Shown here piece by piece: positions 6,538 through 58,053 of a DNA stretch of 64,000 nucleotides (position 1 is the first letter of the stretch; each line of letters starts with the position of its first letter). Under the pieces are notes generated by a model. It worked only from the letters and a program-made list of their open reading frames with translations, had not been told where the DNA came from and ran no database searches. Origin of the DNA: Minisyncoccota bacterium (lineage in GTDB: Bacteria; Patescibacteriota; Minisyncoccia; Phycocordibacterales; JABMNX01); assembly GCA_026195275.1 (NCBI GenBank), contig JAPHQU010000004.1, positions 3,119-67,118 on the forward strand, given 5' to 3'. Position numbers and translations under genes: made by a program.

Positions 6538-7160
6538 TGAATCAAGCAGCAGGCCAAGAAGGAGTCAAGATCTCTCCAGTCAATATGGACAACCGCAAGG
6601 AAATCGGAATCCGTGTCGGTGATAGTGTTCGTGTGTGGCAGAAGATCGAAGAGAAAGGAAAGACGCGACTTCAGGCGTTTGAAGGTTTGGTGCTTGCCCG
6701 CAAGCATGGCGACGAGCCAGGAGCAACATTCACTGTACGCCGCGTTTCAAGCGGCGTCGGGGTTGAGAAGATCTTCCCGCTCTACTCTCCTATGATTGAT
6801 AAGATCGAGATTGTGAAGCGATCAAAGGTACGCCGTGCGAAGCTCTATCATATTCGTGAGAAGGTTGCGCGTGAGATCAAGCGTCAGATGCGTAAGATGC
6901 AGCTCGTTGATATCACTTCAAAGTCTGAGACTGAGGAAGCGGCAGCTGCTGAGGCTGCAGTGAAGGCAGCGGAAGAGGCTGAAGCAGCAAAGGTCGCGGA
7001 GGCAGAAGCGGCAGCAAAAGCTGCTGAAGAAGCAAAAGCAGCCGAAGTGGTTGCCGAGACAGAAGAAGCTCCGGCAGAAGAAGAGAAGAAAGAGGAAGCT
7101 CCGGCAGAAGAGCCCGCTCCGGCAGAAACACCTACAGAGGAAGATAAGAAATCAGAGTAA
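6538..7160 (+). CDS. rplS: Ribosomal protein L19 with Ala/Glu/Lys-rich C-terminal extension
   Basis: IRVGDSVRVWQKIEEKGKTRLQAFEGLVLARKHG...TFTVRRVSSGVGVEKIFPLYSP is the L19 core. The tail AAAEAAVKAAEEAEAAKVAEAEAAAKAAEE... is low complexity. Confidence 0.85.
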
Positions 7161-7183
7161 GACTCAATTTATTTTATACAGAG

Positions 7184-7216
7184 AAAGCCGAGGTTCGCGC
7201 CTCGGCCTTTCTTTTG
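7184..7216 (+). terminator. Rho-independent terminator after rplS
   Basis: AAAGCCGAGGttcgcgCCTCGGCTTT followed by a T-run. Confidence 0.7.
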
Positions 7217-7265
7217 GCGTTTACAAAACCCTCAAAGTTCTTTAGAATGGACGAGTTACATATAT

Positions 7266-7349
7266 GCCCAGGTGATGAAATTGGTAGACATGCACCCTTG
7301 AGGGGGGTGTGTCCGTATGGACGTGCTGGTTCGACTCCAGTCCTGGGCA
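7266..7349 (+). tRNA. tRNA-Leu (anticodon GAG), type II
   Basis: GCCCAGG acceptor, anticodon stem CACCC/GGGTG with loop TTGAGGG, long variable arm, T-arm TGGTTCGACTCCA. 3' acceptor is CCTGGGC+A. Confidence 0.8.
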
Positions 7350-7361
7350 CAATGGTAAACA

Positions 7362-7393
7362 AAAACGACAAGTTGCAACTTGTCGTTTTTGTT
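7362..7393 (+). terminator. Rho-independent terminator after tRNA-Leu
   Basis: AAACGACAAGTTGCAACTTGTCGTTTTTGTTT hairpin plus U-tract. Confidence 0.7.
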
Positions 7394-7463
7394 TAGAACG
7401 CAATTTGCATTGCGTTCGTGCCATTGTGCCAGGCGGAGGCATGTCCCGAGCTGTGAGAGGGAA

Positions 7464-7538
7464 GCCGAGCCCGGGGAGGAAGTGCTTAGCGAGATGGAGT
7501 GCGAAGCACGAACAGTGAGCTTAGCAACTTGACCCCAC
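7464..7538 (+). repeat. Copy 1 of a ~55-75 nt hairpin-forming repeat (GCCGAGCCCGGGGAGGAAGTGCTTAGCGAG...GCTTAGCAACTTGACCCCACA)
   Basis: Three related copies at 7464, 7580 and 8021 share GAGYCCGGGGAGGRAGTKCTTA...GCTTAGMAACTYGACCCC. Confidence 0.7.
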
Positions 7539-7579
7539 AAAGCTCTAGAAACCTGACGCCCAGGTAAAAAATGAAAACA

Positions 7580-7640
7580 GGCGAGCCCGGGGAGGGAGTT
7601 CTTAATGAGCGTAGCGAATTTAGAAACTCGACCCCACACA
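7580..7640 (+). repeat. Copy 2 of the same repeat family
   Basis: GCGAGCCCGGGGAGGGAGTTCTTAATGAGCGTAGCGAATTTAGAAACTCGACCCCACACA. Confidence 0.7.
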
Positions 7641-7835
7641 GTAAACAAAGCAGGTTGCTCGCGCGTCGTGTAGTGCATTGGGAAGTGGACGTTCGTGTAC
7701 CTCAATCGACTTTCGTCACTTCTCTACGCGATTGCTCGACTTTTGAACCATAAATCTGGTATAGTCGAGAGGTCTCCGAGTTATGAATAAACGCCTCATA
7801 CCCATGAGGCGTTTAAAGACTCAAGGGATATATAT

Positions 7836-7908
7836 GGTGCCTATGGTGTAACGGTTAACACGGGGGTTTGTGGAACCCCAAATTCGAGTTCGATTCTCGG
7901 TAGGCACC
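7836..7908 (+). tRNA. tRNA-His (anticodon GTG) with encoded G-1
   Basis: G-1 + GTGCCTA acceptor pairing with TAGGCAC + C73; anticodon stem GGGGT/ACCCC with loop TTGTGGA; T-arm TCGAGTTCGATTCTCGG. Confidence 0.85.
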
Positions 7909-7910
7909 CA

Positions 7911-7958
7911 ACATACAGTTAGGCCCTGACACGATAGTGTTGGGGTCTTACTGTATGT
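7911..7958 (+). terminator. Hairpin downstream of tRNA-His (ACATACAGT...ACTGTATGT)
   Basis: 9-bp inverted repeat immediately 3' of the tRNA. Confidence 0.4.
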
Positions 7959-8020
7959 CGGTACATACTAGAATCGAAAGACGGAGCCAGTACACAAGAC
8001 GAGCGGAGCGAGGGCTTGTC

Positions 8021-8075
8021 GGCGAGTCCGGGGAGGAAGTTCTTAGCGAGCCTGCGAGCTTAGAAACTTGACCCC
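8021..8075 (+). repeat. Copy 3 of the repeat family, directly abutting a duplicated tRNA-His 3' end
   Basis: GGCGAGTCCGGGGAGGAAGTTCTTAGCGAGCCTGCGAGCTTAGAAACTTGACCCC, followed immediately by GATTCTCGGTAGGCACCCAA. Confidence 0.7.
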
Positions 8076-8095
8076 GATTCTCGGTAGGCACCCAA
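8076..8095 (+). repeat. 20-nt direct repeat of the tRNA-His 3' end (GATTCTCGGTAGGCACCCAA): att-site-like duplication
   Basis: Identical to 7889..7908 inside the tRNA-His gene. Confidence 0.7.
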
Positions 8096-8098
8096 GAC

Positions 8099-8137
8099 AC
8101 ACCCATCTACATTGGAATGTAAATGGGTGTTTTTTGA
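8099..8137 (+). terminator. Rho-independent terminator
   Basis: ACCCATCTACATTggaAATGTAAATGGGT followed by TTTTTT. Confidence 0.65.
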
Positions 8138-8150
8138 TATACTAAGGAGT

Positions 8151-8747
8151 ATGAAATTCGGATTTGGTGAGTGGCTCCTCGTTCTGTTTAATACTCTGTA
8201 TATTGCAGCGTTCGGGCTCTACTATGTGAGTATCAAAAACTATGAGTTCCTCTGGTATGTGGCAGTGCTCGTCTTTTTCTTTACACTCATCCTTACCACA
8301 CTCTCAAAAAGCAACTTCAATCAATTTATTCTCTGGTGTCTCTCGATCTGGGGACTGCTCCACATGGCGGGTGGTGGCATCCCGGTGGGCGACAGTGTGC
8401 TCTATGCATACCAGGTACTCCCGCTCTTTAACGGCACTGGAGACTTTGTTCTTATTAAGTTTGATCAGCTCGTGCACGTCTTTGGTTTCTTTGTGACAAC
8501 ACTTGTGGCATTTCATTTGCTTCGCCCATATCTTAACAACAAGACTCGATGGTCTGTGGTGTACGCACTTCTTGTGCTTATTGGGATGGGTGCAGGGTCA
8601 CTTAATGAGATCGTTGAGTTTATCGCAGTGGTCATATTCTCTGAGACAGGGGTCGGTGGCTACGCGAACACGCTTCTCGACTTAGTGTCTAACACGATTG
8701 GAGCTATTTTAGCGATTGGTGTGATTCATTTCCGTAGAAGAGACTGA
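8151..8747 (+). CDS. Hypothetical polytopic membrane protein
   Basis: About 198 aa from MKFGFGEWLL..., with 5-6 predicted TM helices and no recognisable catalytic motif. Confidence 0.5.
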   Translation: MKFGFGEWLLVLFNTLYIAAFGLYYVSIKNYEFLWYVAVLVFFFTLILTTLSKSNFNQFILWCLSIWGLLHMAGGGIPVGDSVLYAYQVLPLFNGTGDFVLIKFDQLVHVFGFFVTTLVAFHLLRPYLNNKTRWSVVYALLVLIGMGAGSLNEIVEFIAVVIFSETGVGGYANTLLDLVSNTIGAILAIGVIHFRRRD

Positions 8748-13087: not shown

Positions 13088-13132
13088 GTGTAAGATTTCT
13101 AAACTCACTTCATTCGTTAAGAACATCTAATC

Positions 13133-20405: not shown

Positions 20406-23400
20406 ATGATTATGAAAAACGACCCTGGAAAGGCTCCCGAGGAGAAGAGTGGTGTTGCAAAGCGTGAGGAGGGGGTCCTCGCATTTTGGCATACAAATAA
20501 TGTCTTCAAGAAATCCGAAGAAAAACCGGCACCAAAAGGAGAATATGTCTTTTACGATGGGCCACCGTTTGCGACCGGGCTTCCGCACTACGGTCACTTG
20601 CTTGCGAGTACTATTAAAGACGCGATACCACGCTACCAGAGTATGCGTGGTCATCGGGTCGTGCGTAAGTGGGGGTGGGACTGCCACGGGCTTCCTCTTG
20701 AGAACGAGATAGAAAAGGAATTGGGTCTTACGACCAAGCGAGACATCGAGAGTCTGGGTATTGCGAAGTTCAATGAAGCGGCGCGCGATGCGGTGCTTCG
20801 CTATGCTGACGATTGGAAGAAGATCATACCGCGGATGGGGCGGTGGGTCGACATGGAGAGCGACTACAAGACCATGGATACCTCGTACACCGAATCGGTG
20901 TGGTGGGTATTCAAAACGCTCTACGACAAAAAAAGTATTTACCAAGGGTTCAAATCAATGCACCTTTGCCCACGTTGTGGCACCACACTCTCGAACTTTG
21001 AAGTGAATCAAGGATATAAAGATACAACCGACATCTCTGTATACGTCGGGCTTAAACTTAAAGATGAGCAGGATACGTCTCTTATTGTGTGGACTACAAC
21101 ACCATGGACGCTACCCGGCAACATGGCAGCGGCAGTGAACAAGGATGTCGAGTACGTCACAGTCGAGAAAAAGGATGAAGGTGGACTCACTCGCTTTATT
21201 GTCGCAAAAGATAAACTCAAAGATGTTTTCGGTGATGATGAATATACCATCGTCGATACATACAAAGGTGAGGAACTTATCGGCAAATCGTATATCCCGC
21301 CGTTTGATTACTACAAAGATAAGAACATCGAGCATAAAGAGAACGCGTGGAAGGTTTACCACGCAGACTATGTTTCAGTTGAGGATGGAACCGGTGTGGT
21401 GCACCTTGCTCCCGCTTTCGGTGAAGAGGACCTAGTGCTTGCTCAACAAGAGGACATCCCGGTCGTACACCACGTAACACCGGAGGGTGTATTTGCACAA
21501 GAAGTGTCTGACTTTGCTGGTATGTTTGCAAAGCCAAAAGATGACCCGCTTGCAACTGATATCGAGATCATTAAGGCGCTCTCCGCGCGCGGCGCGCTCT
21601 TTAAAAAACAGAAGGTAACACACAGCTATCCGTTTTGTTGGCGTTGTGATACGCCGCTTCTTAACTATGCGACATCGTCGTGGTTTGTACGCGTAACTGA
21701 TTTTAAAGACAAGCTTGTTTCAGAGAACAAAAAAGTTGGGTGGATTCCAAAAGATGTCGGCACACATCGATTCGGCAACTGGCTTGAGAATGCACGCGAT
21801 TGGGCGATCTCACGCTCGCGCTATTGGGGCGCACCACTACCGGTATGGCTAAACGAGAAAGAGGAAAAAGTGCGGGTCATGGGATCAGTCGAGGACCTGA
21901 AGAAATATATTGCATCTTCAGGTAATACCTACTTTATGATGCGTCACGGCGAGGCGGTACATAACACTAAGAACACACTGAACGCAAAGGACTCAGTGGA
22001 GAATCCGGTGACGGAAGAAGGAAGGAAACAAGTGTATGAAGCGGCCAAGCTCTTTAACGGAAAGAGCATTGACCTAATCATACACTCTCCATTACAGCGG
22101 ACGCGCGAGACAGCTGAGCTTCTTGCGTCTGAACTCAAGCTCCCTGGATCACAACTTCGCGAAGATGCCCGCCTCACGGAAGTAAATGTCGGGTTGTTTG
22201 AAGGGAAGACAATTGATGAGTACCACGCGTTCTTTGCTGACTCGCGAGAGCGTATGAGTAAGCGACCCGAAGGAGGAGAGAATTGGGGTGAGGTCAAACG
22301 ACGTGTGAGTGAGGTGCTCTACGAGCTCGAGCGAGAATATAAAGATAAAAAGATATTGATCATCTCGCACAACGGACCACTTGAGATGATTCAAGCGGGT
22401 GCGCTCGGGTATGATGTTGATCAATGCGGGGAAGCGATCAAAGATAATCGTTTTGACATGTCGGTCGGCGAGGTGCGTAAACTTCCGTTCATACCGCTTC
22501 CGCATAATACTCTGTTTGAGCTTGACCTACACCGTCCATACATTGATGAGATCACTCTTATTGATACAGACGGCAGCGAGTTGAAACGGATTCCTGATGT
22601 GTTTGACTGCTGGTTTGAATCTGGCTCCATGCCGTACGGGCAGCAGCACTATCCATTTGAGAATACTGATGTCTTCGAGCCAAAGAGCGGATGGTTCAAA
22701 CGAGCGAAAGGCTACCCGGCGGACTTTATCGCGGAAGGAATGGACCAAACGAGAGGCTGGTTCTACTCGCTCATTGTCCTTGGCGTCGGGCTCTTTGGTC
22801 ACTCCCCATACAAGAATGTGATTGTGAACGGTCTCGTGCTTGCGGAAGATGGTCGCAAGATGAGCAAGCGACTCAAGAACTATCCTGATCCGGCATATAT
22901 TTTAAACACCTATGGAGCTGATGCGCTTCGCTACTACCTTCTCTCATCACCGATTGTTCGCGGGGAAGACCTCAATTTCTCTGAAAAGGGTGTTGATGAA
23001 GTGATGAAGAAACTCTTGGTGCGTCTTGAAAACGTATATTCGTTTTATGCACTCTACGTCGAGGATGGAACAGTGCCACAAAGCGTGGCCAGCAAGAATA
23101 TTCTGGACCAGTGGATTCTCTCACGACTCAATGAACTCACTCTTGAGATAACCGGTGCGATGGAACGCTATGAGCTCGACCGCGCGACGCGTCCGATCGG
23201 ACTCTTTATTGATGATCTTTCGACGTGGTATATACGCCGCTCACGTGAGCGCTTTAAGAGCAATGATGTGGAGGATCGTGCGCATGCTCTTGAGACAACG
23301 CGCACTGTTCTCATGGGGCTCAGTAAGGTCATGGCGCCATTCATGCCATTTTATGCGGAAGCACTCTACCAGGAGCTCAAAAAAGAGGACGATCTGGAGA

Positions 23401-23930
23401 GTGTACACCTCTGCGAGTGGCCTGAGGCAGGGAAGAGTAACAAGGAGGCGCTTGAAGATATGGCAGTGGTGCGCCGGCTCGTATCGCTCGGCCTCGAAGC
23501 TCGCGCTAAAGCGGGCACGAAGGTGCGTCAGCCGCTTGCGGAGCTCAAAGTTAGAAGTGAAAAGTTAAAAGGAAAGATGAAACTTCTCGAACTAATCGAG
23601 GACGAAGTGAATGTGAAGAAGATCTCGTTTGATACCTCGCTATCAGAAGAGGTTGAGCTCGACACCGAGCTCACCGATGAGTTGAGACAAGAAGGACTCG
23701 TACGCGATCTTATCAGGCGTATCCAGCAGTTTAGAAAAGAGAACGACCTTACACCGCAAGAGAAGGTGGCAATTATCATCGATACTGATGAGCACCTTAA
23801 GGAAGCGTTTGTGGGCGCGAAGACTGAGATTATGAATGCGACGCTTCTCTCAGACCTCACTTTTGGTTTTGTAGAAGGAGAGAAGGAGACCGTTGACGGG
23901 CATCCGTTTGCGTTCTCACTTAGTAAGTAG
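20406..23930 (+). CDS. ileS: Isoleucyl-tRNA synthetase with an in-frame inserted histidine-phosphatase (PGM-like) domain
   Basis: PPFATGLPHYGHLL (HIGH), TTPWTLPGN (CP1 editing) and KMSKRLKN (KMSKS) are present. An extra ~170 aa lies between the CP region and DLHRPYIDEITL; it contains RHGEAVHN, SPLQRTRETAE and ISHNG motifs. Confidence 0.9.
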   Translation: MIMKNDPGKAPEEKSGVAKREEGVLAFWHTNNVFKKSEEKPAPKGEYVFYDGPPFATGLPHYGHLLASTIKDAIPRYQSMRGHRVVRKWGWDCHGLPLENEIEKELGLTTKRDIESLGIAKFNEAARDAVLRYADDWKKIIPRMGRWVDMESDYKTMDTSYTESVWWVFKTLYDKKSIYQGFKSMHLCPRCGTTLSNFEVNQGYKDTTDISVYVGLKLKDEQDTSLIVWTTTPWTLPGNMAAAVNKDVEYVTVEKKDEGGLTRFIVAKDKLKDVFGDDEYTIVDTYKGEELIGKSYIPPFDYYKDKNIEHKENAWKVYHADYVSVEDGTGVVHLAPAFGEEDLVLAQQEDIPVVHHVTPEGVFAQEVSDFAGMFAKPKDDPLATDIEIIKALSARGALFKKQKVTHSYPFCWRCDTPLLNYATSSWFVRVTDFKDKLVSENKKVGWIPKDVGTHRFGNWLENARDWAISRSRYWGAPLPVWLNEKEEKVRVMGSVEDLKKYIASSGNTYFMMRHGEAVHNTKNTLNAKDSVENPVTEEGRKQVYEAAKLFNGKSIDLIIHSPLQRTRETAELLASELKLPGSQLREDARLTEVNVGLFEGKTIDEYHAFFADSRERMSKRPEGGENWGEVKRRVSEVLYELEREYKDKKILIISHNGPLEMIQAGALGYDVDQCGEAIKDNRFDMSVGEVRKLPFIPLPHNTLFELDLHRPYIDEITLIDTDGSELKRIPDVFDCWFESGSMPYGQQHYPFENTDVFEPKSGWFKRAKGYPADFIAEGMDQTRGWFYSLIVLGVGLFGHSPYKNVIVNGLVLAEDGRKMSKRLKNYPDPAYILNTYGADALRYYLLSSPIVRGEDLNFSEKGVDEVMKKLLVRLENVYSFYALYVEDGTVPQSVASKNILDQWILSRLNELTLEITGAMERYELDRATRPIGLFIDDLSTWYIRRSRERFKSNDVEDRAHALETTRTVLMGLSKVMAPFMPFYAEALYQELKKEDDLESVHLCEWPEAGKSNKEALEDMAVVRRLVSLGLEARAKAGTKVRQPLAELKVRSEKLKGKMKLLELIEDEVNVKKISFDTSLSEEVELDTELTDELRQEGLVRDLIRRIQQFRKENDLTPQEKVAIIIDTDEHLKEAFVGAKTEIMNATLLSDLTFGFVEGEKETVDGHPFAFSLSK
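21920..22480 (+). other. Inserted histidine phosphatase superfamily domain (branch 1, phosphoglycerate-mutase-like) within ileS
   Basis: Catalytic RHG(E) ... SPLxRTxETA ... (I)SHNG motifs in the right order and spacing for a complete PGM-like fold. Confidence 0.75.
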
Positions 23931-44466: not shown

Positions 44467-44495
44467 AAATCTTGACGTCGGACGTCAAGATTTTT
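44467..44495. repeat. REP-like palindrome copy 1: AAAATCTTGACGTCGGACGTCAAGATTTT
   Basis: Perfect 11-bp inverted repeat around a central G, with A/T flanks. Four copies lie within 2 kb around a RAYT gene. Confidence 0.8.
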
Positions 44496-45547: not shown

Positions 45548-45576
45548 AAAATCTTGACGTCCGACGTCAAGATTTT
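45548..45576. repeat. REP-like palindrome copy 2 (central C, i.e. opposite orientation)
   Basis: AAAATCTTGACGTCCGACGTCAAGATTTT. Confidence 0.8.
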
Positions 45577-45635: not shown

Positions 45636-46328
45636 TTATTCCAGAGTAATTCCTTCCAACTCGCTCATTATGGACCTGGACTTGAGCAATGCGCGCATTT
45701 GTTTTTCATAGCCCTCCTCGCCCCCGAGGAGATCAAGAAAGAACTTTCGATCTGTGATAGAGGGAAAATTCTTTTTTCCTAAGTAGTCGGAATGACTCGA
45801 CCAACGATATGATTGTAGATACTCCTCTGCTTCTCTACAGTTTGAAAGACTTCCTTTACGCCACTTTGGCATATTTAGATCAAGTGGGTTGAAGTGTATG
45901 TAAAAAGGAAGATAGAGAAAGTGTGCATCAGTGGCAATTTCGACCTTTTTATATTTTCCTTGCCACAGTGCGCCGTTACGTTCGTATTTTTCATTAAATG
46001 CTTTGGTGTATCCGCCACCGAGTTTTTTCATGAATAGCGACAAATTTTCCATATCATCATCAATAGGGGAGACAAGAAGATGGTAGTGATTCGGCATTAA
46101 ACAGAAACAATGAATCTGCACCACTGGCTCGCGTCTTTTTTTCCAAGAATCTTGACGTCGGACGTCAAGATTCTCTGATGATGCAAGGTGGTGTTTGGTC
46201 AGTCCGTTCGAACTTTGCTTATTGTTGAATTCATATAAATCGTGCAAGAACCGCACGCGATCCTTGTCGTTAAGGAAAACCTTTCGTTTATCAACGCCGC
46301 GGTTATATACATGAAAGAAACGCGTCAT
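45636..46328 (-). CDS. REP-associated tyrosine transposase (RAYT; IS200/IS605 TnpA-like Y1 HuH)
   Basis: Motif I FHVYNRG, HuH motif MPNHYHLLV, and catalytic region GALWQGKYKKV...YIHFNP...SYRWSS. Confidence 0.8.
   Translation of the reverse strand: MTRFFHVYNRGVDKRKVFLNDKDRVRFLHDLYEFNNKQSSNGLTKHHLASSENLDVRRQDSWKKRREPVVQIHCFCLMPNHYHLLVSPIDDDMENLSLFMKKLGGGYTKAFNEKYERNGALWQGKYKKVEIATDAHFLYLPFYIHFNPLDLNMPKWRKGSLSNCREAEEYLQSYRWSSHSDYLGKKNFPSITDRKFFLDLLGGEEGYEKQMRALLKSRSIMSELEGITLE
46147..46173. repeat. REP-like palindrome copy 3, located in frame inside the RAYT coding sequence
   Basis: GAATCTTGACGTCGGACGTCAAGATTC, translated in the RAYT frame as ENLDVRRQDSW between motif I and the HuH motif. Confidence 0.75.
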
Positions 46329-46447
46329 ATAAATAACTCTAGCATGATATACACAGCATAATTGAGCTATCTATTAACACAGATGCTTGATGTGATGGGT
46401 ATAATGCCTAATACGAAATAAAACGAAATAAAATCTTGACGTCCGAC

Positions 46448-46476
46448 GTCAAGATTTTTTGTGAGTTATGAACATC
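46448..46476. repeat. REP-like palindrome copy 4 (central C), upstream of RAYT
   Basis: AAAATCTTGACGTCCGACGTCAAGATTTT. Confidence 0.8.
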
Positions 46477-53818: not shown

Positions 53819-54955
53819 GCATAGGGTCCATAAAGAGGGAACCGCACCCTGTTTGTAGGACGCGGCACCAGTTTGCTTCGCTTCAGGTGGCTTCTTGTGA
53901 TTCTCTAAGAATTTCTTTCGCTTGCTTTAGTGTTGTGAGTCCTCCTGAAAGAACCCCACCATCTCACAAGACGGAAGTGTCTTTCTTTAGAGAGTGTTAT
54001 GTAGACTGCGCCTCCCTTGAATGCCATGAAGCTGGTGCACGGTATATTCTAAGGGTCCGAATACTCAGGAATAGCACGGTGTCAGCTGGGTTGTTGACTC
54101 AAAAACCCGCCTCGTGTATACTGCTGTCTACGTGATTATGAGTATTGATTTGAAGAACACCAACAAGCGGGGGCGCTAGCCGGGGCATCGACTCATGACT
54201 AACGCAGCCGCGATCTCGCGGTTTTTTTCTTGCCTTCACTCATAACTGACATCACGAGAACTTTGACAACGTCATAGGATCCATCTGGTCGGAGAGACTA
54301 GGCGGATCCGCAGGTAAAAACAAACCAAGACTAAAACTAAATGTTTACGTGCCGCTGTAAGCAAGCGGCACACACGAGTGTGGCTATGGTTATACTCGTG
54401 TAGCGGTTTTTAGATTTCCTGATAGGAGATCTAAGAGCGTGTGGTGGATACCTAGACTGAAAAAGGCGATGAAGGACGTGGCATGTCTGCGATAAGCTTC
54501 GGTAAGGTGACTAGCAACCTTTGACCCGGAGATTTCCGAATGGGGGAACCCGGCCGACTCTGTCGGTCACCTTTCTACTTGATAGAAGGGAGCGCACCCG
54601 GGGAAGTGAAACATCTCAGTACCCGGAGGAGAAGAAACCAATAGGAATTCCCGTAGTAGCGGCGAGCGAACTGGGACGAGCCCAAACTCGATTTCACCTC
54701 TACCATCTGTGTTTACACAGGTGCTAGAGGTGGTATCGGGGGTTGTAAGGCAACAATGTCATTTTTTCGAAAATGAGAAAAGTTACAAATTGTAATGTTA
54801 ATGGAAGCTTCTGGGAAGAAGCACCCAAGAGGGTAACAGTCCCGTACATGAAAACATATACAACTTTTTTGTTGTTGTCCTTGAGTAGCTCAAGACACGA
54901 ATAGCTTGAGTGAATCTGCCAGAACTAACTGGTAAGGCTAAATACTTTTTCAGAT

Positions 54956-54994
<39 letters not shown>

Positions 54995-56235
54995 GTCCGG
55001 TGAGGACAGTGAAATAGACTTGAAACCACATGCTTACAAGGAGTCAGAGCGGTCGCAAGACCGTCATGGCGTGCCTATTGAAGAATGAGCCAACGAGTTC
55101 ATATATGTTGCAGGCTAAGCCCTTATCGGGTGGAGTCACAGGGAAACCGAGTGTGAATAGCGCGAACCATTATGTAGCATGTATGAGACCCGAAGCTCGG
55201 TGAGCTTGCCATGGGCAGGGTGAAGTTTGTGGAAACACAGATGGAGGCCCGAACCGGGAGGTCGTTCAACGCCTTCGGATGACCTGTGGTAAGAAGTGAA
55301 AAGCTAATCGAACCGAGTAATAGCTGGTTCTCTCCGAAATAGCTTTAGGGTTAGCGTCGTGTGTTCCTGTTGGGGGTAGAGCACTGGCAGGTGTGAATAG
55401 GGGGAAACCTCGTCATTCCTATCAAACTCCGAATACCAACAGTTAATAGCGCGGCAGTTAGAGTCAGGGGGCTAAGCTCCTGTGCTCAAAAGGGAAACAG
55501 CCCAGATCCCAAGTTAAGGTCCCAAAATTCACGTTAAGTGCACTTAAGGAGGTGAGATTTCTCAGACAATGAGGAGGTTGGCTTAGAGGCAGCCATCCTT
55601 TAAAGATAGCGTAACAGCTCACTCATTCAGAGATTTCGCGCCGCAAATGATCGGGGCTAAACGTGATACCGAAACTGGGGGCTTTCCATTCATTCGTGAA
55701 TGGGGAGCGGTAGGAGAGCGTTCTGTTCTGCGATGAAGCCGAAGGGATAACCCACGGTGGAGCGTTCAGAAGTGAGAATGTTGGCACGAGTAACCGCATG
55801 GCATGTGAGAATCATGCCCGCCGAAAGATCAAGGTTTCCTTCGCGATGTAGATCAGCGAAGGGTTAGTCGGGCCTAAGCCGATCCCGAAGGGGGGAGGCG
55901 ATGGACACATGGTTAATATTCCATGACTTTACGAATATGCGATGGGATGACGGAGGGTTGTACTCTGAGCGCATTATTGGATTTGCGTTGGTGCTGTGAG
56001 GGGGTCTCTTAGGGAAATCCGGGAGACACCACCCCAAGCAGAGCGAAAATGGTGCGGTTTCGGCCAATCCAAATTCAGAGGAGCACGCTTCCAAGAAAAG
56101 TCTCTAAGCTTCAGTATTCGTAAAACCGTACCCCAAACCAACACAGGTGATCAGGTCGAGAAGACCAAGGCGAACAAGTGAGTCTTCCTCAAGGAACTCG
56201 GCAAAACAGCGACCGTAACTTCGGAATAAGGTCTG

Positions 56236-56335
56236 CCTGTGCAGCCAATAGAGGAGTTCATGAAGAAAACAAAAGATGAGACATGTCATATATGTATGCA
56301 TATACATGACAACGGGTGCAAGTGTTCGATCGAGA
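56236..56335 (+). other. Expansion segment in a 23S variable helix, closed by a perfect 14-bp helix (CAGCCAATAGAGGA/TCCTCTATTGGCTG)
   Basis: About 85 extra nt relative to E. coli between ...CUUCGG.AGAAGG... and ...ACUGUUUA.CAAAAACACAG. Contains internal palindromes. Confidence 0.5.
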
Positions 56336-56517
56336 GATCGAATCCTCTATTGGCTGCGTAGGCCGCAGCTAAAGAGCCCTGGCGACTGTTTACCAAAAAC
56401 ACAGCTCCCTGCGAACTCGTAAGAGGATGTATAGGGGGTGACGCCTGACCAATGCCAGAAGGTTAAGCACGGATGGTGTGATGAGTTTACTTGTCATGCT
56501 GGGCTGTGTAAGCCCTG

Positions 56518-56564
<47 letters not shown>

Positions 56565-57215
56565 AGTCCAGTAATTTTGGACGTGCACGAATGGTGTAAC
56601 GACTGGGGCACTGTCTCGAGGAAGAGCTTGGTGAAAATGCAATGGCGGTGAAGATGCCGCCTACCTGCAGCTAGACGAAAAGACCCCAGGAGCTTTACTA
56701 CAGCTTGATATTGGGGGTGTGAGTTGACTGCGTAGCATAGATGGGAGACTTTGAAGCGGACCTTTCGGGGATCGTGGAGTCGCCAGTGAAATACCATCCT
56801 TTCAATTTGCATTCTCTAACCTGAACGGAAAAAACGTGTAGGGACAGTATCTGGTGGGTAGTTTGAGTGGGGCGCTCTCCTCCTAAAAAGTAACGGAGGA
56901 GTCTATTAAGGTCCTCTAGGCGCGAATGGAAACCGTGCCGATAGTGTAAAGGCAAAAGAGGGCTTGACTGCAAGGGGTACATCCCGAGCAGGCGCGAAAG
57001 CGGAGCTTAGTGAACCGAGAGTTTCCTTTAGACGGAGCTCGAGATTAACGGATAAAAGTTACCCTGGGGATAACAGGCTGGTATTGCCCAAGAGTCCATA
57101 TCGACGGCAATGTTCGGCACCTCGATGTCGGCTCACCTTATCCTGGGGCTGGAGAAGGTCCCAAGGGTTTGACTGTTCGTCAATTAAAAAGGTACGCGAG
57201 CTGGGTTCAGACCGT

Positions 57216-57526
57216 TGAGAAGTTGAATTTATTTGACTTCTCAACAGTCTGAGTCCACTCTAACGACACAAAATCGAAGTCTTTTCGTTTATTCAATGAG
57301 AATTAATCAATCTAATCACGGCGGCTGGGTGTTTTCGTAACACCTAGTAAAGCTGACTTATATCGGTAAAACCCGAACCCATTCAGGGAGGGCAATACCG
57401 AGGAAACCCCGCACTTGCATGCAAGTGAAGGGGGTCCGTAGAGACTGAACGTCAGTTATCTGCACACTGTAATGGTGTGTCAGTTAAAGCTACAGTCCAA
57501 TGCACGAAGTAATTCGTGAGAACATG
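57216..57526 (+). other. Probable ORF-less group I intron in 23S rRNA domain V (near E. coli positions ~2593-2597)
   Basis: Conserved 23S sequence GGGUUCAGACCGU | ... | CGUGAGACAGGUUGGUC is interrupted by ~311 nt. The insert follows a U, ends in G, starts with a 10-bp P1-like hairpin (GTTGAGAAGT/ACTTCTCAAC), has AGACUG...CAGUCC (P7-like) and a terminal hairpin CACGAAgtaaTTCGTG (P9-like). Confidence 0.55.
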
Positions 57527-57667
57527 CGTGAGACAGGTTGGTCTTAATCTGCTGTGGGCGTCGATCTTTGAGAGGAGTTGTTCCTAGTACGAGAGGACCG
57601 GAATGAACTGACCTCTGGTGTATCGGCTGTCGCGCCAGCGGCACTGCCGAGTAGCTATGTCGGGAAT

Positions 57668-57700
<33 letters not shown>

Positions 57701-57882
57701 AACCTCAAGATAAGAGATCATAGACCCCTAGGAGATGACTAGGTGATAGGCTCTCGGTGTACGCACAGTAATGTGTTTAGCCAAGGAGTACTAATTCGTC
57801 GTACTCCTGTTAGGAAATCTGAAAATCGCTGTAAACAAAAAGTTTGTTTTTACCAACTCAAGTATTCAATGATGGGTGTTTG

Positions 57883-58053
57883 GGGCCGTAGCTCAGAAAG
57901 GTCACACGCTGTTTCTCAGTTCTTTTGGATTGATTTACTCCATGAGCTGCCAACTTAAGGGGTGGGTCAGGAACACGCGTGTGTCGCGAGAGAGCATCTC
58001 GTCTTGGGAAGGTCGCAGGTTCAAATCCTGCCGGCTCCACCAACTTTCTATCA
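57883..58053 (+). tRNA. Disrupted or intron-containing tRNA-like gene: canonical 5' end and 3' T-arm/acceptor end separated by ~100 nt
   Basis: 5' end GGGGCCGUAGCUCAG. 3' end GCAGG-UUCAAAU-CCUGC-CGGCUCC-A-CCA, complementary to the 5' acceptor. No contiguous D/anticodon arms could be folded. Confidence 0.4.

Follow-up and report, generated by a model that had tools for sequence, protein, structure and literature searches.

A 64,000-nt stretch of contig JAPHQU010000004.1 from a Minisyncoccota bacterium, called the window here, carries on its forward strand a tRNA-Leu(GAG) gene and a tRNA-His(GTG) gene, each followed by a copy of a short non-coding element that is the subject of this report. The copy behind tRNA-Leu (c1) and the copy behind tRNA-His (c3) are accompanied by an incomplete third one (c2), and the features of all three are collected in Table 1. 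The genes flanking c3 are housekeeping genes (RluA, L19, DUF2238, NhaP, and ZIP), and no open reading frame (ORF) lies inside the unit. All of the evidence described below is computational.

The original prediction, made from the letters of the window, drew attention to a duplication of the last 20 nt of tRNA-His. The 20-mer GATTCTCGGTAGGCACCCAA indeed has two exact occurrences in the 64 kb, at 7892–7911 and 8076–8095; the first had been placed at 7889–7908, which is 3 nt too far to the left, and the claimed spacing of 168 nt proved to be a gap of 164 nt, or 184 nt from start to start. No match was found in 100 dinucleotide-preserving shuffles of the window, even with up to three mismatches allowed. 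The 20-mer begins at nucleotide G57 in the T-loop of tRNA-His, whose T-stem and T-loop read TCGAG-TTCGATT-CTCGG (7884–7900), and extends 3 nt beyond the discriminator.

A hairpin repeat had also been described, in three copies, and exactly three are present in the window, compared with 0 to 0.12 matches expected by chance. Their 5′ halves lie at 7467, 7583, and 8024 and their 3′ halves end at 7536, 7635, and 8075, and all three fold into the same hairpin on the plus strand. As claimed, the third copy abuts the duplicated tRNA end, with the hairpin ending at 8075 and the second 20-mer starting at 8076. This hairpin, named P3 below, forms the right end of the unit, in agreement with the proposal that it is the terminal sequence of an inserted element. 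The suspicion that the ORF called at 7256–7705 (−) is spurious was also borne out, as it overlaps tRNA-Leu and two of the repeat copies.

These observations, together with those on other genomes presented below, led us to conclude with high confidence that c3 (7892–8075, 184 nt) is an intact member of a Patescibacteria-restricted family of non-coding insertion elements 130–210 nt long. With equally high confidence, c1 (7346–7536) is a second intact copy, located behind tRNA-Leu, and c2 (7576–7635) a truncated third.

Table 1. Positions of the element copies, their target tRNA genes, and an unrelated palindrome in the window
Feature	Position	Strand	Basis
tRNA-Leu(GAG), target of c1; junction between C72 (7348) and discriminator A73 (7349)	7266..7349	+	ARAGORN; Rfam tRNA 45.4 bits
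c1 P1 5′ strand GGCACAATGG: last 4 nt of tRNA-Leu and 6 nt of trailer	7346..7355	+	Perfect 10-bp complement of 7421–7430; fold
c1 Pa: perfect 40-nt palindrome with zero-nucleotide loop, terminator-like, enclosed by P1	7356..7395	+	Inverted repeat, 100% complementary; fold
c1 Pb hairpin GAACGCAATTTGCATTGCGTTC; module recurring in many family members, covarying stem	7396..7417	+	
c1 guide CCATTGTGCC, antisense to tRNA-Leu 3′ end and trailer	7421..7430	+	
c1 conserved core: AG-GC-GGAG, P2 hairpin, CGAG-CC, P3 hairpin (7473–7536)	7431..7536	+	Model R1 match 7409–7558, 97.7 bits, full length
c1 flank ACAAAG, remnant of displaced discriminator and trailer (compare ACAATG at 7349–7354)	7537..7542	+	Read from sequence
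c2: 5′-truncated relic keeping P2 3′ strand (AACAG-GCGAGCC) and P3 (7589–7635)	7576..7635	+	R1 match 7562–7652, 54.4 bits, P2 block deleted
tRNA-His(GTG), target of c3; G-1 encoded at 7836	7837..7908	+	ARAGORN (7837–7909); Rfam 59.5 bits (7837–7908)
Direct repeat 1 (DR1): tRNA-His 3′ part from G57 to 3 nt past discriminator; left end of c3	7892..7911	+	Exact 20-mer
c3 Pa: imperfect hairpin with 25-nt arms, overlapping and directly following tRNA end	7908..7961	+	Inverted repeat; folds
c3 guide GGTACATACTAGAATC, antisense to GATTCT..GGTAGGCAC of DR1/DR2	7960..7975	+	
c3 junction and P2: GAAAG-AC-GGAG (7976–7986), P2 hairpin (7987–8022), CGAG-UC-C (8023–8029)	7976..8029	+	R1 match 7957–8097, 103.4 bits, full length; covariation
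c3 P3 hairpin GGGG-AGG-AAGUUCUUAGC...GCUUAGAAACUU-GA-CCCC; third copy of the predicted hairpin repeat; right unit end	8030..8075	+	
Direct repeat 2 (DR2): displaced original tRNA-His 3′ end; P1 3′ strand in three-way-junction fold	8076..8095	+	Exact 20-mer; fold of 7957–8097
Intrinsic-terminator-like hairpin and T-run, probably the original tRNA-His terminator	8099..8135	+	Fold; not listed by simple consensus scan
Palindrome TCTTGACGTC-N-GACGTCAAGA flanking the RAYT gene, four copies	44470–44490, 45552–45572, 46150–46170, 46434–46454		All four within 44.4–46.5 kb

Architecture and fold of the unit

From 5′ to 3′, a unit consists of DR1, which is the replacement gene end, the variable hairpins Pa and Pb, a guide, and a conserved core, and DR2 abuts P3, the last hairpin of the core, without a spacer. 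Pa is often the terminator of the target gene, and Pb, which recurs, has an 8-bp stem and a CUGC-type loop. The guide is a segment antisense to the gene end (DR1); DR2 can pair with it, and this pairing closes a three-way junction. The boundary of the unit lies precisely between P3 and P1.

Both intact copies of the window have a guide antisense to their target end, with perfect 10-bp pairing in c1 and an exact 20-nt direct repeat in c3. The six junction-proximal pairs of the c3 guide are perfect and the remaining ones partly decayed, and c3 Pa, together with DR1 and the guide, is predicted to form a single hairpin of ~40 bp. The palindrome Pa of c1, which is unusual for a plain terminator, directly follows tRNA-Leu and forms the apex of the c1 P1 helix. 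Copy c2 is devoid of a guide, of P1, and of the 5′ half of P2. A search of the window with model R1, built from aligned units, returned c3, c1, and c2 and nothing else that is credible. Both c3 and c1 cover R1 positions 1–140 of 140, a match that is partly by construction, since the two stand in the seed alignment, whose other 50 sequences are from other genomes. A 28-nt stretch at 13096–13123 (−), UUCUUAACGAAUGAAGUGAGUUUAGAAA, resembles the apical P3 of other genomes (R1 E = 0.0011); it lies ~200 nt downstream of a nusG-like gene, with no other parts of the element around it.

An alignment of 52 units, analyzed with RNAalifold and by explicit pair counts, gave a three-way junction as the consensus structure, and the predicted fold of 7957–8097 matches it exactly. 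P1 is formed by the guide with the 3′ flank, and all six of its counted pairs change on both sides. It is followed by the junction A/GAAA and by P2, in which G-R-C pairs with G-Y-C (P2a; A:U 29, G:C 21), and then come an internal loop GGA/GA and P2b with a variable hairpin, where pairs 31:75 and 32:74 covary. A single C separates P2 from P3. The latter is built from GGGG/CCCY, a loop AGG/GA, AAGUNCUUA/UUAGNAACUU (in the consensus, AAGUNCU.A/U.AGNAACUU), and an apical GAG-minihairpin-CGAA, and its pairs 94:142 and 99:137 covary via three or four pair types. Pair 25:80 covaries as well. Paired cells amounted to 94.1%, compared to 79.1% in shuffles, and the covariation score of 0.379, compared to 0.116 in shuffles, was reached by none of 500; slid partners gave at most 0.095.

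Some 45 positions show little or no variation, one diverged unit has GCUC/GAGU in place of the GGGG/CCCC helix, and the helix tips repeatedly carry a GAG-[GC-GNA/GNRA-GC]-CGA module. The conserved helices contain ~14 G.U pairs versus one A.C pair. As G.U is tolerated and A.C nearly absent, the conserved fold belongs to the tRNA-sense strand. Guide complementarity was 8.7 of 12, compared to 7.2 in a permuted-locus control with a maximum of 7.67 in 200 permutations. The guide fits DR1 better in 14 cases and DR2 better in 12, with 12 ties, as judged with a crude detection of DR1. In the minimum free energy fold predicted for 7837–8136, the 5′ acceptor strand of the tRNA pairs with DR2, and DR1 is sequestered with the guide.

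Distribution, targets, and insertion

The core 18-mer CCGGGGAGGNAGTNCTTA was used to scan 185,579 species genomes and gave at least 120 loci; an exact match was required, and copy numbers and diverged subfamilies are therefore under-counted. Some 280 matches to its 16 fixed bases would be expected by chance in 596 Gb, and the matches in Proteobacteria, Firmicutes, and other phyla hold nothing past the 18-mer. The whole hairpin is present in ~83 loci among the at least 120 matches listed, and nearly all of these are labeled Patescibacteria, also known as the candidate phyla radiation (CPR). Taxonomic labels of metagenome-assembled genomes (MAGs) were taken as given, and one element-bearing contig (L076) is labeled Acidimicrobiales. 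Lineages with the element include Saccharibacteria, Paceibacteria, and Kaiser-, Nomura-, and Campbellbacteria. A search with R1 found 89 copies in loci L001–L100 and none in ~29 non-CPR control loci.

Searches of other collections were negative. Among 2.9 million viral contigs the 18-mer had a single match, in a contig from which the element is absent, and the c3 unit had no blastn match in 50,697 phage records or 72,556 plasmid records. Scanning the window with Rfam at the gathering threshold gave no family at the repeat, and a cmscan of 7100–8300 against Rfam 15, with E up to 10, returned only the two tRNAs and chance-level matches to miRNAs and sRNAs. No description of the element was found in the searchable literature, which may not cover everything; only the group I introns in the anticodon loops of Patescibacteria tRNAs turned up (PMC13011429).

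Units are strongly associated with gene ends. In 41 of them, a tRNA on the same strand ends 74–129 nt upstream of the hairpin, and in nine more the distance is 175–860 nt; the upstream tRNAs span 17 tRNA identities. Two classes can be distinguished. Copy c3 belongs to the T-loop class, in which the sequence following ...GACCCC is a repeat of the upstream tRNA starting at T-loop position 56/57; in 16 further loci at least 18 of 22 nt of the 3′ end of the locus's own tRNA are repeated straight after P3, always from position 56/57. The duplicated length is ~17 to >35 nt, and some of the displaced copies are decayed. Copy c1 belongs to the acceptor-end class, whose junction is at the acceptor end of the tRNA and whose repeat amounts to only a few bases. 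Units without an upstream tRNA lie directly behind rplE (six loci), fusA (three), efp (three), or ftsZ (three), and duplicate the 3′ end of the protein gene, including the stop codon and terminator. For example, the last 31 nt of rplE and the terminator are found in L074 both before the unit and directly after P3.

No copy interrupting a gene without re-supplying its end was found among the loci examined (the first five processed, L058, L011, L043, and L024 among them, with L029, L046, L114, L017, L025, and L030 outside this check), and the upstream gene was complete in L058 and L011, which were checked individually. The tRNAs of these two loci had been missed by ARAGORN. On the reverse strand of L058, ~350 nt upstream of the element, a long structured insertion comes before a tRNA-fMet-like T-arm and acceptor end; it probably represents a group I intron like those described from Patescibacteria (PMC13011429).

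The original prediction considered that the DNA between the repeats is too short for an element, so that an element had been lost or reduced. This argument falls, because units of the same size make up the family: measured from DR1 to DR2, 26 units span 133–289 nt (median 186.5), six units measure 183–184 nt, and the 184 nt of the window unit are its full length. The prediction also held that a repeat widespread in unrelated intergenic regions would be a generic one. The repeat is widespread across Patescibacteria but not in unrelated contexts; it is not a generic intergenic repeat, since it always adjoins the 3′ end of a tRNA gene or of a highly expressed gene and is accompanied by a flank duplication.

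Several observations are signs of multi-copy or mobile behavior. Tandem units occur in L011, L042, L081, L008, and the window. Those of L011 are identical, and in L042 and L081 each of the two units opens with a fresh copy of the rplE end, the outermost copy being diverged. Near-identical P2 sequences are found at no fewer than eight different tRNA species. Six contigs break off within the element, a behavior typical of multi-copy repeats. Synteny was compared in 80 metagenomic loci anchored on the DUF2238 gene downstream; two were informative, and neither has the element: L128 has the order tRNA-Leu(GAG), LysE-type gene, PduO-type gene, tRNA-His, small ORF, DUF2238, and L160 the order PduO-type gene, tRNA-His, 25 nt, DUF2238. 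The sites can thus be empty; at 58–65% protein identity, these relatives would not date the insertion as recent. Identical tandem units, empty sites in relatives, and contig breaks are indirect signs that the element may be mobile at present.

The PduO-type adenosyltransferase gene, intact upstream of tRNA-His in the syntenic L128 and L160, is reduced in the window to its last ~30 codons (7700–7790, +; ending in ..VYLNRLSSLLYAIARLLNHKSGIVERSPSYE and the stop codon). The rest of this gene and the LysE-type gene are absent between tRNA-Leu and tRNA-His, where c1 and c2 sit. In the genome of PFBI01000006.1, the units behind rplE (L034) and fusA (L051) have nearly identical apical P3 sequences, and their P2 sequences resemble instead those of units at the same gene in other genomes, a pattern that suggests gene conversion between copies.

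The proposed footprint of site-specific insertion stood in one part and failed in the other. The duplication is of the attL/attR type, with the tRNA rebuilt by an element-borne 3′ end and the displaced end on the far side. Mediation by an integrase found no support, as no integrase was detected in the unit, beside it, in the 64-kb window, or recurrently beside ~85 other copies. Pfam scans of most window ORFs of at least 90 aa yielded RecA, RecO, FtsK, and one protein like the REP-associated tyrosine transposases (RAYTs; REP, repetitive extragenic palindrome). This divergent RAYT (45636–46328, −) is the sole HUH/Y1 protein of the window, with an HUH motif PNHYHLL, a YIHFNP motif, 26.6 bits to Pfam Y1_Tnp, and 46.8 bits to NCBIfam REP_Tyr_transpos, which falls short of the cut-off of 80. 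The perfect palindrome on its flanks (Table 1) is unrelated in sequence to the tRNA-linked element. One palindrome copy sits in frame within the RAYT ORF, and the ensemble looks like a small REPtron.

Proposed mode of insertion and competing explanations

The explanation that we consider best overall, with a little better than even credence, is a non-autonomous, self-guided insertion or homing element. Site selection would come from the guide, which would pair with the target's sense strand immediately 3′ of the cut, and strand exchange would occur exactly at the P3|P1 junction. Insertion would be Campbell-like, in that the gene would keep a complete 3′ end and the event would be phenotypically silent, and it would regenerate the target, making tandem arrays possible. 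As for the chemistry, a folded single-stranded DNA form may be handled in trans by an enzyme recognizing the conserved core, a proposal that we rate just short of even. It is favored because reverse transcriptases are scarce and the GCGAAGC-type tips are DNA-stable, because the sense strand is exposed in highly transcribed genes, and because there are precedents in IS200/IS605, integron attC sites, and CTXphi. Such GCGAAGC-type mini-hairpins are very stable DNA hairpins. More tentatively, and with doubt prevailing, the three-way junction may be the active module of a new self-guided mobile element, either as a small ribozyme that cuts and rejoins nucleic acid at P3|P1 or as the scaffold of guided recombination with a trans enzyme. 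On this view, a target-complementary guide of 10–17 nt would steer scarless insertion, with the gene preserved, to the 3′ ends of essential, highly expressed genes across the CPR.

Mobilization in trans of a non-autonomous unit has parallels in cis-mobilizable elements and other integrase-dependent non-autonomous elements, and in integrative mobile elements exploiting Xer recombinases such as CTXphi, which use folded single-stranded DNA and the host XerCD. The att site of CTXphi is a duplex arising from intrastrand pairing of inverted segments ~90 nt apart, which is comparable to the guide and direct repeat around the core. However, those elements use one fixed, recombinase-recognized site (att or dif), whereas in the present family the segment that pairs is variable, being derived from the target, and conservation resides in the loop (P2/P3). 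In the IS110/IS1111 elements, an element-encoded structured bridge or seek RNA has loops that pair with target and donor DNA, and target choice is programmable. Each of them brings its own recombinase gene, together with two guide loops. Compared from their general description and from Rfam, the present unit differs in having no recombinase ORF and no Rfam match. To our knowledge, no element described so far brings together, in less than 200 nt, a conserved three-way-junction core, a guide complementary to the target, and a replacement for the gene end, and the family is apparently undescribed.

A number of points weigh against a self-guided mobile element. How the guide and DR1 come to match >20 different targets is unexplained. 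No integrase, DDE transposase, or reverse transcriptase was found in or beside the unit or in the window by Pfam scans of most ORFs of at least 90 aa, and no recombinase occurs among the recurrent neighbors of ~85 copies. RAYT homologues are absent from all fetched element loci, and the RAYT of the window adjoins a different palindrome. No closely related pair of occupied and empty sites was found among the relatives compared, the empty ones being at 58–65% protein identity. The core is near-identical from Saccharibacteria to Paceibacteria; such uniformity is not usual in selfish repeats and could also reflect a host function. Across genomes, units at one and the same gene (fusA, efp, or rplE) have P2 sequences in common, which points to long vertical residence. 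Many units sit behind an intrinsic terminator. A count of G.U against A.C in the target-derived hairpin, meant to tell RNA from DNA, gave 150 G.U pairs in the sense fold and 107 in the antisense fold, and is to be read with the opportunistic G.U pairing of RNAfold in mind.

The main rival, in our view rather unlikely, is that the element moves at the RNA level as an intron-like or viroid-like ribozyme. The three-way junction would be catalytic, with the guide aligning DR1 or DR2 at the junction; reversible cleavage and ligation at C|G57 would free the 184-nt unit, possibly as a circle, and join tRNA nucleotides 1–56 to DR2, and the unit would spread by inserting into abundant transcripts through the reverse reaction, with reverse transcription and recombination as the later steps. 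The core is RNA-like, with a compact three-way junction, invariant purine-rich junction and internal loops, tandem G.A modules, and GNRA/GNA loops, and its tolerance of G.U but not A.C points the same way. All units lie directly behind highly transcribed genes and in the same orientation, the element boundary falls exactly at the P3/P1 junction, the predicted minimum free energy fold of 7837–8136 would correspond to an "intron-containing tRNA" conformer, and c2 is truncated at its 5′ end like an incomplete reverse transcript. However, no known ribozyme or intron family matches in Rfam with E up to 10, the GCGAAGC-type tips fit DNA hairpins as well, and many units hold an intrinsic terminator upstream of the core. 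Splicing is never required, as the element never interrupts a gene in the examined copies.

The phylum itself offers arguments on both sides of a ribozyme. Self-splicing group I introns that lack a homing endonuclease gene are frequent in the tRNA genes of Patescibacteria, whereas reverse transcriptases are scarce, with none among the scanned ORFs of the window, and group II introns are reported absent from Patescibacteria (PMC13011429). Like the present element, the tRNA group I introns are structured, tRNA-linked, and mostly without protein genes, show ribozyme-like junctions, occur in the same phylum, and have guide/exon pairing resembling that of an internal guide sequence; unlike them, the element is a ~110-nt three-way junction located behind a complete gene and not in an anticodon loop (PMC13011429). 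It has no Intron_gpI or HDV-family match in Rfam (E up to 10). HDV-like "theta" ribozymes occur downstream of phage tRNAs.

It is improbable that the element is instead a host cis-acting RNA, selected and immobile, that serves processing, stability, termination, or antitermination at the 3′ ends of highly expressed genes, with the duplications as old by-products. Such a role would suit the deep conservation of the core across CPR classes, the presence of the element at rplE, fusA, efp, and ftsZ in several genomes with P2 specific to the target class, and the pairing of the guide with a functional gene end. Evolution of a 3′ untranslated region in place, however, cannot yield displaced gene ends with stop codon and terminator, and the perfect 20- to 35-nt duplicates (window, L052, L064, and L074) and identical tandem units (L011) indicate recent insertions. 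Moreover, near-identical P2 sequences recur at many tRNA species, the absence of the element from most tRNAs and relatives makes it dispensable at any one site, and in T-loop units the guide would compete with folding of the tRNA.

Very improbable is a decayed attL/attR scar of a larger, integrase-bearing prophage or island once resident in tRNA-His, although the T-loop sublocation, the rebuilt tRNA 3′ end, and the displaced copy are the classical signature of a tyrosine integrase. tRNA genes are established att sites of tyrosine-integrase elements. Prophages, integrative and conjugative elements, and genomic islands of this type resemble the present family in using T-loop and 3′-end sites of tRNAs and 3′ ends of protein genes, in supplying a replacement 3′ end and leaving a displaced direct repeat, and in their capacity for tandem arrays. 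They differ in measuring kilobases rather than 130–210 nt and in having an integrase. The present targets are too diverse for one protein-recognized core, the unit has an antisense guide and a three-way-junction core, and its left half-site GACCCC is unlike a tRNA T-stem. More than 85 units share size and architecture, and independent decay cannot repeatedly give the same 184 nt; no integrase lies among the scanned ORFs of the window or recurrently beside other copies, and the viral, phage, and plasmid collections scanned hold no copy.

Least credible of all is an intergenic palindrome like REPs or bacterial interspersed mosaic elements, spread by the RAYT at 45636–46328, with the tRNA-end duplication a coincidence. 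The same genome does encode this divergent Y1/HUH protein, and HUH enzymes use hairpins and short guide pairing. IS200/IS605, their derivatives the palindrome-associated transposable elements, and REP/RAYT systems resemble the present family as small non-coding units with strand-specific imperfect hairpins and cleavage sites chosen by pairing with a guide beside the hairpin foot. The guides of IS200/IS605 and REP/RAYT, however, are 4–5 nt long, and their insertions neither duplicate 17–35 nt of target nor re-supply its 3′ end. The RAYT of the window has its own unrelated palindrome, no fetched element locus contains a RAYT homologue, and the element has only three copies in 64 kb, all behind tRNA-Leu and tRNA-His.

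Other candidates were rejected. A miniature inverted-repeat derivative of a DDE transposon does not fit, as the two ends of the unit, formed by DR1 and the 3′ strand of P3, show no inverted repetition, and the inverted repeat is internal (DR1/guide); nor does a fixed-length target-site duplication, as the duplicated length varies from 17 to >35 nt. A self-splicing intron was dismissed since examined copies leave the upstream gene complete. Known Rfam families, including self-cleaving ribozymes, group I and II introns, HEARO/omega-type RNAs, and IS605-orfB motifs, gave no covariance-model match. Likenesses seen by eye to domain IV of signal recognition particle RNA, the P4 region of RNase P, the hammerhead stem II core, and box C/D K-turns failed on Rfam, architecture, or copy number, and so did DNA uptake sequences, target sites of diversity-generating retroelements, and a TnpB omega-RNA type of scaffold plus guide.

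Other features of the window and significance of the family

Several further features of the window deserve mention. The ribosomal protein L19 ORF (6300–7160, +) has a long Ala/Glu/Lys-rich, low-complexity C-terminal tail (~6900–7160) built from imperfect direct repeats; as the start called for it runs into the preceding RluA gene, translation probably begins further downstream. A class I aminoacyl-tRNA synthetase of the Ile/Val/Leu type (20406–23930, +; 1174 aa) has a His_Phos_1 domain (aa 510–674, E = 1.5e-34) inserted in the middle of its catalytic domain. The 23S rRNA match (54421–57813, +) measures 3393 nt against 2925 nt for the model, which amounts to ~470 nt of insertions, possibly introns, as are common in CPR. 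Between the 23S rRNA and tRNA-Pro/5S lies a tRNA-Ala-like gene (57882–58039, +) with G3:U70 and an encoded CCA. Its D-loop region holds a ~94-nt insertion and its anticodon arm is shortened (Rfam tRNA 36.9 bits, no ARAGORN call); an interrupted tRNA, a pseudogene, and a tRNA-like RNA are all possible.

Even on a conservative reading, the family is of use as a conserved new RNA motif that occurs in most CPR lineages and is not in Rfam. If self-guided insertion is true, Patescibacteria would possess a phylum-wide family of ~185 nt uniting a nearly invariant structured core, a target-complementary guide, and a built-in replacement of the gene end, a combination that is not known elsewhere, and this would be a new class among bacterial mobile or structured nucleic acids. 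Owing to the built-in replacement of the displaced gene end, insertion into essential genes would be harmless. The family would help to explain the assembly breaks of MAGs beside tRNA genes and would let annotators recognize spurious ORFs and pseudo-tRNA ends. It would also represent a compact system for coupling base-paired target choice to strand exchange, with relevance to programmable insertion tools.

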